In this document: in pieces, positions 4,156 through 25,733 of the stretch
Position numbering within the stretch: the first letter of the stretch is position 1
Layout of the letters: the number at the start of each line of letters is the position of its first letter
Assembly: GCF_900079115.1 (NCBI RefSeq)
Contig: NZ_LT549890.1
Location: 660,001-692,000, forward strand
Length of the DNA stretch: 32,000 nucleotides
Direction of reading: 5' to 3'
Origin: Saccharolobus solfataricus
Lineage (GTDB): Archaea > Thermoproteota > Thermoprotei_A > Sulfolobales > Sulfolobaceae
The notes under the pieces: model-generated
Databases searched by the model: none
The model's input: only the letters and a program-made list of their open reading frames with translations
What the model was told of the DNA's origin: nothing
Program-made: the position numbers and the translations under genes

Positions 4156-6075
4156 TTGGTGAATAGGTTGGCATCTCTGGATAGGTTTAACAGAATATCG
4201 TTAATATATTCTGAACTAAAGGAATTAGGGATAACCAGAATTGAATATGAAGGACCGACAATAGCTGTGTATGTAAAGAAACCAGCACTGATAACAGAAA
4301 AGGGAGAAGTAATAAAGAAAATTGCAAAGGATATTAAAAAGAGAATAGTAATAAAAGCCGACCCTTCAGTAAGGAAAGATAAGAAGGAAGCCGTTGAAAT
4401 AATAAAGAACCTTGTACCCGCCGAAGCTGAAATTGTAGATATAAAATTTGATGATGACTTAGGTGAGGTATTAATAAAGGCAAAGAAACCAGGATTAGTA
4501 ATAGGAAAAGGTGGCTCATTACAGCAAAGAATATTTGCTGAAACCTTTTGGAAGGCGGAAATAGTTAGAGAACCACCAATAAAATCTAGAACATATGATA
4601 GTATCTTAGAGCATATTTACAATGAGACTGAATATAGAGCTAAAATACTAAAGGTTTTTGGAGAAAGGATACACAGAGAGACGATATTTCAAGATAAGTA
4701 CGTAAGAATTACGGCATTAGGAGGCTTTCTAGAAGTTGGTCGGTCTGCAGTATTAGTAGAAACTCCAGAAAGCAAAGTATTGCTAGATGTGGGACTTAAC
4801 CCTAGCGCGAATATGTTTGGAGAGAAATTATTCCCTAAGCTTGACATTGACCAGTTGAAGATGGAGGAATTGGATGCTGTAGTTATCACACATGCACATT
4901 TAGATCATTGCGGAATGGTGCCTTTTCTATTTAAGTATGGATATGAAGGGCCAGTATACACTACTGTACCAACTAGGGATATAATGGCATTAATGCAATT
5001 AGACTCGCTTGACGTTGCAGAAAAAGAAGGCAAACCCATACCTTACTCCGCAAAAGAGGTAAGAAAGGAGTTATTACACACAATAACGTTAGATTATGGA
5101 GAAGTTACTGATATTGCACCTGACATAAGATTAACATTCTACAACGCTGGCCACATATTGGGATCTGGGATGGCTCATTTACACATTGGAGATGGAAAAC
5201 ATAACATAGTCTATACTGGTGACTTCAAATATGCAAAAACTAAACTGCTTGATAAGGCAAACACGGAATTTCCAAGAGTTGACACGTTAATTATGGAAAC
5301 TACTTATGGTGCACAAGATCAGCCAAATAGAGAGGAATCGGAATTAGAGTTGCTAGAGATTATAAATAAAACACTTAATAAAGGAGGAAAAGTCCTAATT
5401 CCAGTACTAGCTGTAGGAAGAGGACAAGAAATTATGCTCATAATAAACGATTTTATGAAAAAGAAGCTAATTCCAGAGGTACCGGTTTACGTAACGGGAT
5501 TAGTTGATGAAGTTACAGCTATACATAATGCGTATCCAGAGTGGTTAGGAAGAGAAGTGAGAGAAGAAATATTGTATAAAGATGAAAATCCGTTTACCTC
5601 AGAACACTTTAAGAGAATTGAAGGATATAAAGAGGATATAGCAAAAGGTGAGCCATCTATAATTTTAGCAACTTCTGGAATGTTAAACGGAGGACCCGCT
5701 GTGGAATTCTTCAAGACCATGGCACCAGATCCTAAAAATGCAATAATATTTGTAAGTTATCAAGCAGAAGGTACATTAGGTAGAAAAGTGAGAGACGGCG
5801 CAAAAGAAGTACAAATTCTTGATAGGGACGGAAGAGTAGAGTCAATACAAATAAATATGGAAGTCGAGGCAGTTGAAGGGTTTTCTGGACACTCCGATAA
5901 AAGACAACTCCTTAACTTCCTTAGAAATATCGAACCTAAGCCCAAAAATGTAATATTAAATCACGGAGAAGCATCTTCAATAAGAGCTTTTGCAAACTAT
6001 ATAAGAGAAGATAGATTAGGGTATAAGCCCAATATATATACACCAGCTATATTGGATAGCCTAAGAGTAGCCTAA
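4156..6075 (+). CDS. aCPSF1-type beta-CASP ribonuclease (N-terminal KH domains plus metallo-beta-lactamase)
   Basis: 639 aa. KH-like GLVIGKGG motif, metallo-beta-lactamase HAHLDHCG, then beta-CASP region. Apparent TTG start. Confidence 0.9.
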
Positions 6076-6267: not shown

Positions 6268-6524
<257 letters not shown>

Positions 6525-6876
6525 ATTTCCACGTCCAGCATTATAGTTGCCAAAACGCGTTTATAAGCTATTGGCAATCGTTAATTTTTGTCGTTAAAAA
6601 TCGTTGAATTGAAAGTAGACGGCAAAAATTCCTTAGTTTCGCAAAAATTCAGATAGAATTAAGAAACACCTCGCTAACTAACGCCTCATGCCCGTCTTTG
6701 CGGATTAGATAATAAACACCAGGCCGATATTTCCCTCCGTCGTAGATAAACCCGCCGTCGCTCGTCATTTGAGCCCGCTATGTACCATATTGTACTTTAA
6801 CATATTTAAATTTTGTGGTAATTTGTGGTACATTAAAGTTTTTATATTGAAGTACAATAAAGTATATTGAGGTAAA

Positions 6877-7104
6877 ATGCCCAGGCCAGGTTATAAGTCG
6901 GTCTACTTCCCAGATGAGGAGCTATGGAAGAAAATAGTGGATGAGGCAGAAAAAAGGAAAGTAAGTGTATATGAGGTGTTAAAAGACGCTTTCAATTGCT
7001 ATATAAGGGAAAAGGAAGGGAATAAGGTAAGTATGGAGGAAATAGTAAAAGAGCTCCAGGAATTGAAGAAGAGGGTTGAGGAACTGGAAAAGAAAGTTAA
7101 ATAG
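6877..7104 (+). CDS. ribbon-helix-helix (CopG/ORF56-like) DNA-binding protein with C-terminal coiled coil
   Basis: 75 aa. The N-terminal pattern KSVYFPDEELWKKIVDEAEKRKVSVYEVLKDAFNCYIRE fits an RHH fold (beta strand plus two helices). EELEKKVK heptads at the C-terminus. TATA-like TTTATATT about 30 nt upstream. Confidence 0.6.
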   Translation: MPRPGYKSVYFPDEELWKKIVDEAEKRKVSVYEVLKDAFNCYIREKEGNKVSMEEIVKELQELKKRVEELEKKVK

Positions 7105-7199
7105 AATTTTTTATTGATAAACTGGGGAGTTAACTAATCTTCTTATTCAAATAATAATTCTATAGGGATACTAACTTAGTATAAATAAAAACAGAAAGA

Positions 7200-7207
7200 T
7201 TTTCAAA
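7200..7207 (+). promoter_or_regulatory. TATA-like box of C/D sRNA copy A
   Basis: TTTTCAAA is centred about 27 nt upstream of the first G of the sRNA stem. The equivalent TTTTTAAA sits at the same distance in copy B. Confidence 0.4.
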
Positions 7208-7230
7208 TCCCAAAAAATAAGAACTAAATT

Positions 7231-7302
7231 GGGGAGCGGGGAAATGATGAGGGTTCCAGAGCTGAAGCGTGATGAATGGTTGACACGCTGACCCCGCTCC
7301 CC
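7231..7302 (+). ncRNA. C/D box sRNA (2'-O-methylation guide type), copy A, closed by an 11-bp stem
   Basis: GGGGAGCGGGG-AA-ATGATGA(C)-GGGTTCCAGAG-CTGA(D')-AGC-GTGATGA(C')-ATGGTTGACACG-CTGA(D)-CCCCGCTCCCC. 44/72 G+C in AT-rich surroundings. No ORF. Confidence 0.75.
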
Positions 7303-7349
7303 TAATTTCCTTTGAGTTAGTGACAATAAAGTTTTCTCAATTCACTATA

Positions 7350-7556
7350 TTATCTTCCTTTTCTATTTCTAGAAGAAGCCCTGCTTACTATGTCGTCCGG
7401 GACTTTCCTTATTTTACCCACAACATACCTGTATAGAGTACTCCTACCTATACCTAACTTCTGTGCAACATAACTCAGCTTGTACTTTTCTACTACCTTT
7501 TTGAGTACCCGAATTTTTTGCTCATTATCGAGTCTATCTAAGTCAATCTTTACCAT
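7350..7556 (-). CDS. small helix-turn-helix protein (mobile-element remnant)
   Basis: The ORF track gives 7350..7616. I prefer the ATG at 7556 (MVKIDLDRL..., 68 aa) because a TATA-like TTTAATATT lies about 22 nt upstream, giving a leaderless transcript. HTH signature SYVAQKLGIGRSTLYRYV. Confidence 0.5.
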   Translation of the reverse strand: MVKIDLDRLDNEQKIRVLKKVVEKYKLSYVAQKLGIGRSTLYRYVVGKIRKVPDDIVSRASSRNRKGR

Positions 7557-7669
7557 AATCTCATATACCAATATTAAATGGTGAGAGTGTTGCAAAAATA
7601 TCCTTTGCTGTTGCAAATCTCTTATCTCTGTAGAGAACGTAATTTTCTTTCAAATTATCATAAAATTAG

Positions 7670-7759
7670 TGCCGCGGCCGGGATTTGAACCCGGGTCACG
7701 GGCTCGAGAGGCCCGCATTCTTTCGGTGCCTGCGCTTGACCGGGCTAAACCACCGCGGC
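7670..7759 (-). tRNA. tRNA-Glu(CTC) with an intron of about 17 nt at a non-canonical position (between D-arm and anticodon stem)
   Basis: Reverse complement GCCGCGG-TG-GTTT-AGCCCGGTC-AAGC-G-[CAGGCACCGAAAGAATG]-CGGGC-CTCTCGA-GCCCG-TGAC-CCGGGTTCAAATCCCGG-CCGCGGC-A. The 17 extra nt precede the anticodon stem. Confidence 0.7.
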
Positions 7760-24315: not shown

Positions 24316-24400
24316 GCGGGGGTGCCCGAGCTAGGTCAAAGGGGGCAGGCTTAGGCCCTGCTGGCGAAGGCCTGCACGGGTTCAAATCCCGTCCCCCGCA
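24316..24400 (+). tRNA. tRNA-Leu(TAG)
   Basis: GCGGGGG-TG-CCCG..-GCAGG-CTTAGGC-CCTGC, a long variable arm, CGGGTTCAAATCCCG-TCCCCCGC-A. Confidence 0.9.
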
Positions 24401-24687
24401 CTGTTTTTAAACTCAATTAAATTTCATCTATAAGATTAAATGTTTTAGAATATATTGAATGAATACTAATTCTCAGAAATAATATCTAAATATCACTATA
24501 TTTCAAGAATTAGTAAATAATTATCTCTAGTTGGTTAATTGCTGAAATATTTTACTTTTTTAGACTATAGCTGGAGTTTGCAAAAGCTTATAGCCCGTAA
24601 TTAACTCCCCAGTTAAACCAATGTTGTAAGTCTTATCACTATAAATAAAACTAAAATTCTTCATTAGCTTTGAAGCAACGGACGTGA

Positions 24688-25527
<840 letters not shown>

Positions 25528-25572: not shown

Positions 25573-25644
25573 GGGGAAAGGGGTCAGCTCCCAAGCCGTT
25601 CATCCTGGCTCAGTTCTGGCGTGGCTCATCATTCCCCTTTCCCC
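25573..25644 (-). ncRNA. C/D box sRNA, copy B (paralogue of 7231-7302 with different guides)
   Basis: Minus strand: GGGGAAAGGGG-A-ATGATGA(C)-GCCACGCCAGAA-CTGA(D')-GCC-AGGATGA(C', one deviation)-ACGGCTTGGGAG-CTGA(D)-CCCCTTTCCCC. 44/72 G+C. Confidence 0.7.
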
Positions 25645-25667
25645 GTTTTCTAGTTTTGCAAAATAGG

Positions 25668-25675
25668 TTTAAAAA
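25668..25675 (-). promoter_or_regulatory. TATA-like box of C/D sRNA copy B
   Basis: TTTTTAAA on the minus strand, centred about 27 nt upstream of the stem, within a block conserved with copy A. Confidence 0.4.
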
Positions 25676-25733
25676 CTTTTCTGTTTTTATTTTTGTCCTT
25701 TTAATATCTCATTAGGAATAATATTTTAAAAGG

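Follow-up and report, generated by a model that had tools for sequence, protein, structure and literature searches.

A C/D Box Guide RNA Gene with a Long Closing Stem in a Conjugative-Plasmid Remnant of Saccharolobus solfataricus

Architecture of the sRNA Gene

A 32,000-nt stretch of the Saccharolobus solfataricus chromosome (contig NZ_LT549890.1, positions 660,001 to 692,000; hereafter the window) contains a real C/D box guide RNA gene at 7231–7302 of the forward strand, which belongs to the archaeal class that directs ribosomal RNA (rRNA) methylation. The gene is a self-contained cassette of Sulfolobales conjugative plasmids and consists of a promoter module with a B recognition element (BRE) and a TATA element, a 72-nt small RNA (sRNA), and a T-rich end. 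The cassette lies in what is left of a pNOB8-type conjugative plasmid that integrated at a transfer RNA (tRNA) gene, tRNA-Glu, and has since decayed. The coordinates of the features are given in Table 1.

The RNA reads GGGGAGCGGGG-AA-AUGAUGA-GGGUUCCAGAG-CUGA-AGC-GUGAUGA-AUGGUUGACACG-CUGA-CCCCGCUCCCC; at the DNA level, the D' spacer is GGGTTCCAGAG, the D spacer is ATGGTTGACACG, and the 3' arm is CCCCGCTCCCC. Of the features that define the C/D class, RUGAUGA is found near the 5' end, CUGA near the 3' end, and the C' and D' boxes are located between them. The proposal of a complete C/D box guide RNA gene, made earlier from the letters alone (hereafter the sequence-only reading), is borne out by the boxes, spacers, linker, and Rfam matches. 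The box order, the 11- and 12-nt guide spacers, the 3-nt linker between D' and C', and the G+C content of 44/72 (direct count) are exactly as that reading gave them, and the target strings of both guides, obtained by the N+5 rule, were derived correctly. The sole open reading frame (ORF) that spans the sRNA is 51 aa long, has a TTG start, and is located on the minus strand.

Table 1. Features of the sRNA cassette and its surroundings. Positions are those of the window unless a contig is named.
Feature	Position	Strand	Remarks
FttA/aCPSF1	4156–6075	+	
tRNA-Val	6268–6344	+	
SSV-type IntN fragment	6303–6524	−	PF07935
sRNA-2, decayed 5' half	6751–6778	−	stem arm, mutated box C (AUGACGA), and D' guide left; alignment A1 with L013, pKEF9, and pB12E5
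75-aa conserved plasmid ORF	6877–7104	+	earlier called "CopG-like"
AAACTGGGGAGTT motif	7119–7131	+	exact match; marks where the sRNA cassette adjoins the 75-aa-ORF block
Cassette promoter module	7143–7230	+	BRE-like AAAAACAGAAAGA at 7187–7199, TATA-like TTTTCAAAT at 7200–7208, initiator region AGAACTAAATT
5' stem arm	7231–7241	+	GGGGAGCGGGG, 11 bp; pairs with the 3' arm; covaries with respect to the pB12E5 homologue
Box C	7244–7250	+	AUGAUGA, preceded by AA
D' guide	7251–7261	+	GGGUUCCAGAG, 11 nt; perfect target 5'-CUCU[G]GAACCC-3'
Box D'	7262–7265	+	CUGA
Box C'	7269–7275	+	GUGAUGA, after the 3-nt linker AGC
D guide	7276–7287	+	AUGGUUGACACG, 12 nt; perfect target 5'-CGUG[U]CAACCAU-3'
Box D	7288–7291	+	CUGA
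3' stem arm	7292–7302	+	CCCCGCTCCCC; perfect 11-bp inverted repeat with the 5' arm
T-rich end and downstream flank	7303–7345	+	T-rich end TAATTTCCTTT, flank ..ATAAAGTTTTCTCA..; aligns with plasmid ..TATTAAGyTTTTCTTCTCA..
88-aa ORF	7350–7616	−	N-terminal stub of a pNOB8-type plasmid tyrosine integrase; earlier called "HTH gene"
tRNA-Glu(CUC)	7669–7759	−	23-nt non-canonical intron; attachment site of the plasmid remnant
Sister cassette sRNA	25573–25644	−	72 nt, perfect 11-bp stem; stem/box scan
sRNA-2 copies	L013 1016–1081; L001 ~4253–4300; L002 ~1948–1998	− (all)	

The motif formed by the arms is expected only 0.04 times per shuffled window. A scan for a box C and a box D inside a stem of 7 bp or longer revealed two elements in the window, with 0.02 expected. 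The fold of the sRNA has an energy of −31.9 kcal/mol (z = −3.8), and an equally good fold was found in none of 200 shuffled sequences; according to RNAfold, the terminal stem is still folded at 75–85 °C. The stem and the GA/GA elements of the kink-turn (k-turn) are present, and the distance from the stem to the G of the first sheared pair is 4 nt (A-A-A-U). This spacing is shared by the closest homologue, described below, while the sister cassette at 25573–25644 has the canonical 3 nt.

When the Rfam C/D models were run, a check that had been proposed together with the gene, RF01133 (sR3) matched 7231–7302 just above its cut-off (41.5 bits against 41, E = 2e-7). About 20 further archaeal C/D families matched the same interval below their own thresholds, including snoPyro_CD (33.2 bits), sR1 (32.7 bits), and sR5 (26.5 bits). 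The RF01133 score stems mainly from the boxes. Since the sR3 alignment covers the boxes and not the guides, the assignment is made at the class level and does not extend to orthology with sR3. As an orthologue, sR3 was rejected: aligning the D' guide with its consensus takes a deletion of 5 nt and an insertion of 4 nt, and 6/12 positions of the D guide agree. The guides of the S. acidocaldarius sR3 are also unrelated to those of the sRNA, and an annotation relying on Rfam alone would wrongly name this locus sR3.

The length of the closing stem can be compared with the S. acidocaldarius sRNA set of Dennis et al. 2015 (PMC4644070, Additional file 1). Its 47 sRNAs defined by RNA-seq have a terminal pairing of at most 4 bp, a median length of 59 nt, leaders of at most 6 nt, and trailers of at most 7 nt. 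By this comparison, the 11-bp GC stem is an outlier for Sulfolobus, yet a stem of this kind (7–12 bp) is the norm in the plasmid cassettes. The sequence-only reading had called the stem unusual, which holds with respect to S. acidocaldarius; it overlooked the long stem as a family trait maintained by compensatory change, the nature of the gene as a plasmid cassette, and the sister cassette in the same window.

Conservation of the Guides and the Stem

The closest homologue of the sRNA is encoded by the S. shibatae plasmid pB12E5 and reads UGAGGGACGGG-UC-AUGAUGA-GGGUUCCAGCG-CUGA-AGC-AUGAUGA-ACGGCUAACACG-CUGA-CCCGUCCCUCA, with a 72-nt geometry identical to that of the window sRNA. All 11 stem pairs are kept in this comparison, and five of them are altered on both sides. 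In a control in which the 3' partner was slid by 1–3 columns, pairing dropped to 45–61% and no compensatory changes were seen. Identity reaches 10/11 in the D' guide and 9/12 in the D guide, which differs by three transitions; the stem arms, at 55% identity, vary more than any other part of the sRNA. The compensatory changes in the arms together with the conserved guides indicate that selection has acted on the structure of the stem and on the sequence of the guides.

Within the species, 11 sRNA copies were retrieved and all of them are identical over ±120 nt; the locus is unchanged in every S. solfataricus assembly retrieved, and contig ACUK01000205 of S. solfataricus 98/2 is identical to the window. 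The exact 22-mer (box C, D' guide, and box D') and the exact 23-mer (box C', D guide, and box D) gave no matches in genome representatives and viral contigs, nor did the same scans with one N allowed; the 22-mer scan missed even S. solfataricus, of which at least 11 complete genomes carry the locus by the protein index, and the region is possibly masked in that collection or missing from it.

The Cassette Family and Its Promoter Module

The cassette family was found in at least ten Sulfolobales plasmids, where it carries a variable C/D sRNA closed by a GC-rich stem of 7–12 bp. The same arrangement is present in pRT2, pSOG1/2, pNOB8, pARN3, pARN4, pHVE14, pYN01, and pAH1, and at a second site of pB12E5. 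The family module, CTAAyGAGATAATAA..AAAAACAGAAAg.TTTTTAAAT..AGAAsTAGAAAt, directly abuts the G-rich 5' arm of the stem and is followed by a C/D sRNA with its own guide pair, the complementary arm, a T-rich stretch, and a conserved flank. The T-rich end of the window cassette may serve as a terminator.

The upstream module is conserved across ten elements, i.e., the window and nine plasmids (alignment A3). The centre of the TATA-like TTTTCAAAT is located 27 nt before the first stem G (G7231), as had been reported from the letters, and the element lines up with TTTTTAAAT/TTTAAATA of the homologous cassettes. In a low-stringency BLAST search with window 7120–7400, the pRT2, pARN3, pSOG1/2, and pHVE14 plasmids matched only the upstream ~70 nt. 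An 11-nt repeat, TTCAAATCCCA, shared by the T-arm of tRNA-Val and the TATA region of the cassette was considered and rejected as meaningful: it is compatible with chance, and the conserved promoter explains it better.

The AAACTGGGGAGTT motif occurs twice in the window, with 0.01 expected: besides the exact copy at the junction, there is a copy with one mismatch at 24603–24615 on the minus strand, which belongs to the second integrated remnant. The similarity to pKEF9, pB12E5, and pSOG2 stops precisely at the exact copy. At least ten copies of the motif are present in pB12E5 (12 reported), and one is located downstream of every plasmid cassette. It is reportedly the recombination motif of these plasmids (Greve et al. 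2004). As a repeat at which plasmid blocks are joined, AAACTGGGGAGTT accounts for the location of the sRNA cassette after the 75-aa ORF.

In pKEF9 (L122), pING1 (L123), and pBEU9E1 (L126), the promoter slot of the sRNA is filled by a relE/parE toxin gene. The relE gene of integrated Sulfolobales conjugative plasmids has been described without a linked relB (A. hospitalis genome paper, PMC3119797).

Some members of the family have peculiar sRNAs. The sRNA of pARN3 (L116, ~590–665) is atypical: its C-to-D' interval is 32 nt long and contains a CCCUCG/CGAGGG hairpin, and its terminal stem has 4 bp. The sRNAs of pNOB8 (L119), the second pB12E5 site (pB12E5_b, L121), pYN01 (L124), and pAH1 (L125) have a doubled D box, CUGACCUGA, before the 3' arm of 11–12 bp, and their internal boxes are degenerate (UUGA, AUGAUAG).

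Plasmid Remnant at tRNA-Glu

The sequence-only reading had placed the gene between a CopG-like gene and a helix-turn-helix (HTH) gene in a decayed SSV-type integrated element. This placement did not survive. The flanks match the conjugative plasmids pKEF9, pB12E5, pSOG1/2, and pARN4, so the sRNA belongs to a pNOB8-type remnant and not to an SSV scar; similarity to fuselloviruses is confined to 6301–6633, which covers IntN and the attachment (att) site at tRNA-Val. The 75-aa ORF has a BLAST nucleotide identity of ~78–84% to a hypothetical gene adjoining plrA in pKEF9 and pB12E5, and Pfam and PDB sequence searches gave no match for it and no support for the name CopG-like. The supposed HTH gene turned out to be the truncated plasmid integrase: in a BLAST search, window 7395–7700 showed 84% nucleotide identity to the int N-terminus and att region of pSOG1, pSOG2, and pARN4, and the Pfam HTH matches of this ORF are weak.

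The anticodon loop of the tRNA at the att site is CUCUCGA in the Rfam alignment, which corresponds to Glu(CUC), where ARAGORN had Ser(cga). The 3' terminal 32–33 nt of this tRNA are identical to plasmid and viral att regions, and one of these regions carries the annotation tRNA-Glu. The 23-nt insertion falls in the D-arm region. In contig L007 (1239–1328), where the neighbours are the same, the anticodon loop of the tRNA is CUUUCGA (UUC), and the att copy in contig L013 also has UUC. Given these two UUC copies and CUC in the window, the anticodon of tRNA-Glu was possibly swapped via integration or excision.

A fuller version of the element is found in the Logan contig L013 (1.8 kb), which also encodes the 75-aa protein and shows 95.9% identity to window 6751–7547. 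This contig begins with a second att copy (the 3' part of tRNA-Glu), followed by a 126-aa ORF, plrA, an intact sRNA on the opposite strand (sRNA-2), the 75-aa ORF, the sRNA, and the truncated int. The intact sRNA-2 reads GGCGGGG-UCAG-AUGAUGA-GGGACGACGGG-CUGA-CGU-AUGAUGA-GCUUGUUACGAG-CUGA-CCCCGCC and is also located between plrA and the 75-aa ORF in pKEF9 and pB12E5. The UCAG spacer of the L013 sRNA-2 is complementary to box D, and an alternative 11-bp stem could sequester this box.

Second Cassette

The sRNA of the sister cassette reads GGGGAAAGGGG-A-AUGAUGA-GCCACGCCAGAA-CUGA-GCC-AGGAUGA-ACGGCUUGGGAG-CUGA-CCCCUUUCCCC. The promoter module of this cassette is located on the minus strand at ~25,667–25,688, just upstream of the sRNA. 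The snoPyro_CD score of the interval is 41.5 bits with a cut-off of 45, i.e., below the Rfam gathering threshold. The cassette is surrounded by genes for DUF4898 and DUF1286, as is the case in plasmids, and by a fragment of an archaeal integrase (24847–25527) and tRNA-Leu (24316–24401). From this arrangement, the locus looks like another integrated conjugative-plasmid remnant. Two independent plasmid remnants within 32 kb have each left a stemmed C/D sRNA.

As for the rest of the window, its RFC, MCM, Cdc6, and GINS gene order is presumably that of the P2 SSO0761–0774 region. Rfam detected a tRNA at 377–484 on the minus strand (47 bits) that was not reported by ARAGORN; it has an insertion of ~37 nt, probably an intron or a long variable arm.

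Predicted rRNA Targets

Targets were sought in the 16S and 23S rRNA of three Sulfolobales operons (L015–L017) and in the 16S rRNA of S. acidocaldarius. Three more uncultured Sulfolobales-like rRNA contigs were found, none of them assignable to Saccharolobus. All sites are given in E. coli numbering, and the sister sRNAs served as a positive control. In Acidianus and two Sulfolobales metagenome-assembled genomes (MAGs; L015 and L016), the 16S–23S operon adjoins the homocitrate synthase gene; this synteny is broken in S. solfataricus CP160827.2 (L095), where rpiA comes next and an insertion sequence (IS) element is nearby.

The sister guides gave clear matches. The D' guide of the pKEF9 sRNA-2 forms 11/11 pairs with 16S CCCGUCGCUCC (p ~0.003, shuffled guides), with U1406 as the predicted site, and the D guide of the L013 sRNA-2 forms 10/10 pairs with 16S UCGUAACAAG (p ~0.05, shuffled guides), with U1498 as the predicted site. 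These two sites are on both strands at the top of 16S helix h44. For the pSOG1-type D' guide, 11 pairs are possible with 16S CUCGUGUUGUGA (p ~0.003–0.02, shuffled guides), and the predicted site is in helix 35, at approximately 1073. The D guide of the cassette at 25573–25644 forms 11 pairs (9 Watson–Crick and 2 G-U) with CUCCCGGGCCGC in L017, a string that also occurs in the S. acidocaldarius 16S alignment. Because the guides of the sister plasmid sRNAs match 16S rRNA, the targets of the window sRNA are also most likely in the host 16S rRNA.

The best candidates for the window sRNA, judged by complementarity, are the 16S 530 loop (U518, D guide) and the h42 loop (G1316, D' guide). Positions 2–11 of the D guide form 10 contiguous pairs with GGUGUCAGCCGC, the 530 loop of four 16S sequences from Sulfolobales, which by the N+5 rule points to U518. 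The pB12E5 D guide has Watson–Crick pairs where the window copy has G-U, and each D-guide copy is one or two transitions (C-to-U or G-to-A) away from the perfect 530-loop complement, CGGCUGACAC. The conserved core of the D' guide, GGGUUCCAG, fits an h42 loop with the sequence (C/U)UGGAACCC, which is found in Acidianus copahuensis and in a Nitrososphaeria MAG, and would direct methylation to G1316; it misfits the loop readings CUGAAACCC/CUC or CUGCAACUC of S. acidocaldarius and other contigs. In the Acidianus and L044 16S sequences, the D' guide forms 9–10 pairs with this loop. If the h42 loop reads CUGGAACCC at 1314–1322, with G at 1317, the D' duplex would have 9 bp for the window guide and 10 bp for the pB12E5 guide.

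Several other candidates were rejected. An exact target of the D guide in the 16S h43 loop was not confirmed: a metagenome scan for AACCGCGTGTCAACCAT gave 16 matches, none of them in 16S rRNA, and the h43 of S. acidocaldarius agrees at 9/12 positions. The anticodon loop of tRNA-Glu as a target of the D' guide has two mismatches, one of them at position 5, which is at the chance level. Sac-sR118, a possible host counterpart for the h42 site, was dropped, since its guides are directed at other positions. Complementarity of the guides within the window or to plasmid sequences does not exceed chance.

Proposed Mechanism and Alternative Explanations

Taken as a whole, the sRNA gene is probably a plasmid-derived C/D guide RNA cassette with its own promoter and a closing stem kept by selection, whose product is assembled with host proteins and likely directed to 16S rRNA. 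Transcription would start at or near the first stem G (G7231) and end just past the stem. A stable transcript bound by the C/D proteins is indirectly supported by the conserved promoter module and the T-rich end. The 11-bp GC stem would define and protect both ends of the primary transcript and, at ~80 °C, would keep box C and box D together for the k-turn. Base pairing would replace the combination of L7Ae binding and partial circularisation used by the stemless, often co-transcribed chromosomal sRNAs of Sulfolobus. The host L7Ae, Nop5, and fibrillarin would assemble on the sRNA, and each guide would direct 2'-O-methylation of the nucleotide opposite guide position 5.

A number of observations weigh against this explanation. 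The surrounding element is decaying, and the adjoining sRNA-2 copy has decayed. The covariation of the stem is based on two sequences, and, as all 11 copies of the locus are identical, no sign of constraint is seen within the species. The k-turn bulge has 4 nt and not the canonical 3 nt. In the 16S and 23S rRNA of the three Sulfolobales operons and in the 3' half of the S. acidocaldarius 16S rRNA, the search for sites with at most two mismatches came up empty for both guides. The match to the 530 loop includes 8 Watson–Crick and 2 G-U pairs and, with p ~0.10–0.15, is not above shuffled guides; at the same loop, the pB12E5 D guide has an A-C mismatch at position 6, beside the methylation position. 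The fit to h42 hinges on position 1317, which is variable among Sulfolobaceae.

Some of these observations would also be expected if the sRNA were a relic, functional on a plasmid elsewhere and now an orphan of the chromosome, maybe still transcribed and bound by L7Ae, with no productive target and intact because the remnant is young. This is unlikely, but it agrees with the decay of the element, which has a truncated integrase, no plrA any more, and a mutated half of sRNA-2, and with the lack of a convincing target in the Sulfolobales rRNAs searched. The D guide is two C-to-U changes off the perfect 530-loop complement, the TATA element differs by one change from the family consensus, and the identical copies give no sign of purifying selection within the species. 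However, none of the four boxes and none of the 11 stem pairs has been lost although the adjacent sRNA-2 has been destroyed, and the locus does not vary between the assemblies. The guides have been conserved with respect to pB12E5 while the arms diverged, and the missing target on which the relic explanation depends applies to rRNAs other than that of the host.

It is quite improbable that the RNA serves the plasmid in some other way, by titration of L7Ae, in an antisense or chaperone role, or by a change at the A-site that counters a RelE-type toxin. The replacement of the sRNA by relE/parE in the promoter slot of three plasmids and the presence of relE without a linked relB in integrated plasmids (PMC3119797) could be understood in this way, as could the position of the sister targets (U1406 and U1498 in h44, helix 35) close to the decoding site. 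The dedicated conserved promoter of the cassettes, set against the 47 stemless, AT-flanked sRNAs of S. acidocaldarius, can also be counted here. On the other hand, there is no direct evidence for such a role, the canonical boxes and spacers and the rRNA complementarity of the relatives have the look of ordinary guides, no relE is close to the window copy, and complementarity to plasmid or window sequences is not above chance.

Similarly improbable is the idea that the plasmids use exchangeable guide cassettes to reprogramme, for their own benefit, the methylation of the host 16S rRNA around the decoding site (U1406 and U1498 in h44, helix 35, and perhaps also the 530 loop). The cassettes might, for instance, act as an RNA "antitoxin" or give immunity to the orphan A-site toxin of the RelE type that takes the same slot. 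In that case, the chromosomal copies of S. solfataricus would be domesticated components or leftovers of this system.

Finally, a MITE (miniature inverted-repeat transposable element), which the sequence-only reading had raised as an option, a hairpin terminator, or chance box-like words in place of an RNA gene can be dismissed for practical purposes: the perfect 11-bp inverted repeat with a T-rich stretch behind it would suit such an element, but stem-plus-box elements exceed their expected number (2 against 0.02), no further arm or guide copies exist in the window, the 22- and 23-mer scans found none in genome representatives and viral contigs, target-site duplications are absent, and the boxes and guides are kept while the arms vary in a compensatory manner, the opposite of the conserved terminal repeats of a MITE.

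Significance

The sets of C/D sRNAs vary greatly among archaea, and the origin and spread of new guides is an open question. Promoter-equipped guide cassettes on conjugative plasmids offer a concrete route for the horizontal transfer of rRNA-modification specificity, with fixation in the host chromosome through integration at tRNA genes, which has taken place twice in 32 kb. The long GC stem under compensatory evolution represents a second solution for the ends of hyperthermophilic sRNAs, and the function of this stem is directly testable. If it is true that plasmid guides methylate the 16S decoding centre, mobile elements would be editing the host ribosome, a matter of interest to those who study RNA modification as well as to those who study archaeal mobile elements.

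Comparison with Known Systems

The known sRNAs of Sulfolobus and Saccharolobus (sR1–sR60) are similar to the window sRNA in the boxes, the 11–12-nt guides, the short linker, the N+5 rule, and the expected binding of L7Ae, Nop5, and fibrillarin. In contrast to the chromosomal sRNAs of Sulfolobus, the window sRNA has a length of 72 nt, an 11-bp stem, its own conserved promoter, and a mobile-element carrier. Chromosomal sRNA genes are reportedly usually devoid of their own promoters, a finding attributed to Tripp et al. 2017. No match to the guide strings was found in the literature. A literature search that left outside the original papers (Greve 2004, Erauso 2006) found no link between pNOB8-type plasmids and C/D sRNAs, and a prior mention is possible.

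The plasmid cassettes have the promoter module, the downstream flank, the 7–12-bp stem, and AAACTGGGGAGTT in common with the window cassette. They differ from it in their guide pairs, and most of those linked to DUF1286 have degenerate internal boxes, whereas the C' and D' boxes of the window sRNA are canonical. In addition, the window copy is chromosomal, and the junction at which it sits, behind the 75-aa ORF, is not that of the plasmid copies.

A base-paired end beside the C/D k-turn is likewise present in sR8 of Methanocaldococcus jannaschii and in eukaryotic C/D snoRNAs with terminal stems. The 8-bp stem end of sR8 stabilises the di-sRNP (a dimeric small ribonucleoprotein), and many archaeal sRNAs are stemless (PMC5062973). 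Unlike sR8, the window sRNA has a longer stem (11 bp) kept by compensatory change within a plasmid-borne lineage, and occurs in a genus whose other sRNAs have no such stems. Partial circularisation has been described for hyperthermophile sRNAs (Pyrococcus, S. solfataricus) and is believed to keep the ends together (PMC3326292). The presumed problem of holding the ends is the same for the window sRNA, which would use a long GC duplex instead.

With other pNOB8-type integrated plasmids, the remnant shares the integrase and the tRNA att site, plrA, small ORFs, and decay after integration; its RNA cargo is what stands out. The window sRNA belongs to a known class of RNA and differs from the known Sulfolobus sRNAs as a mobile-element cargo with its own conserved promoter and a long covarying stem.

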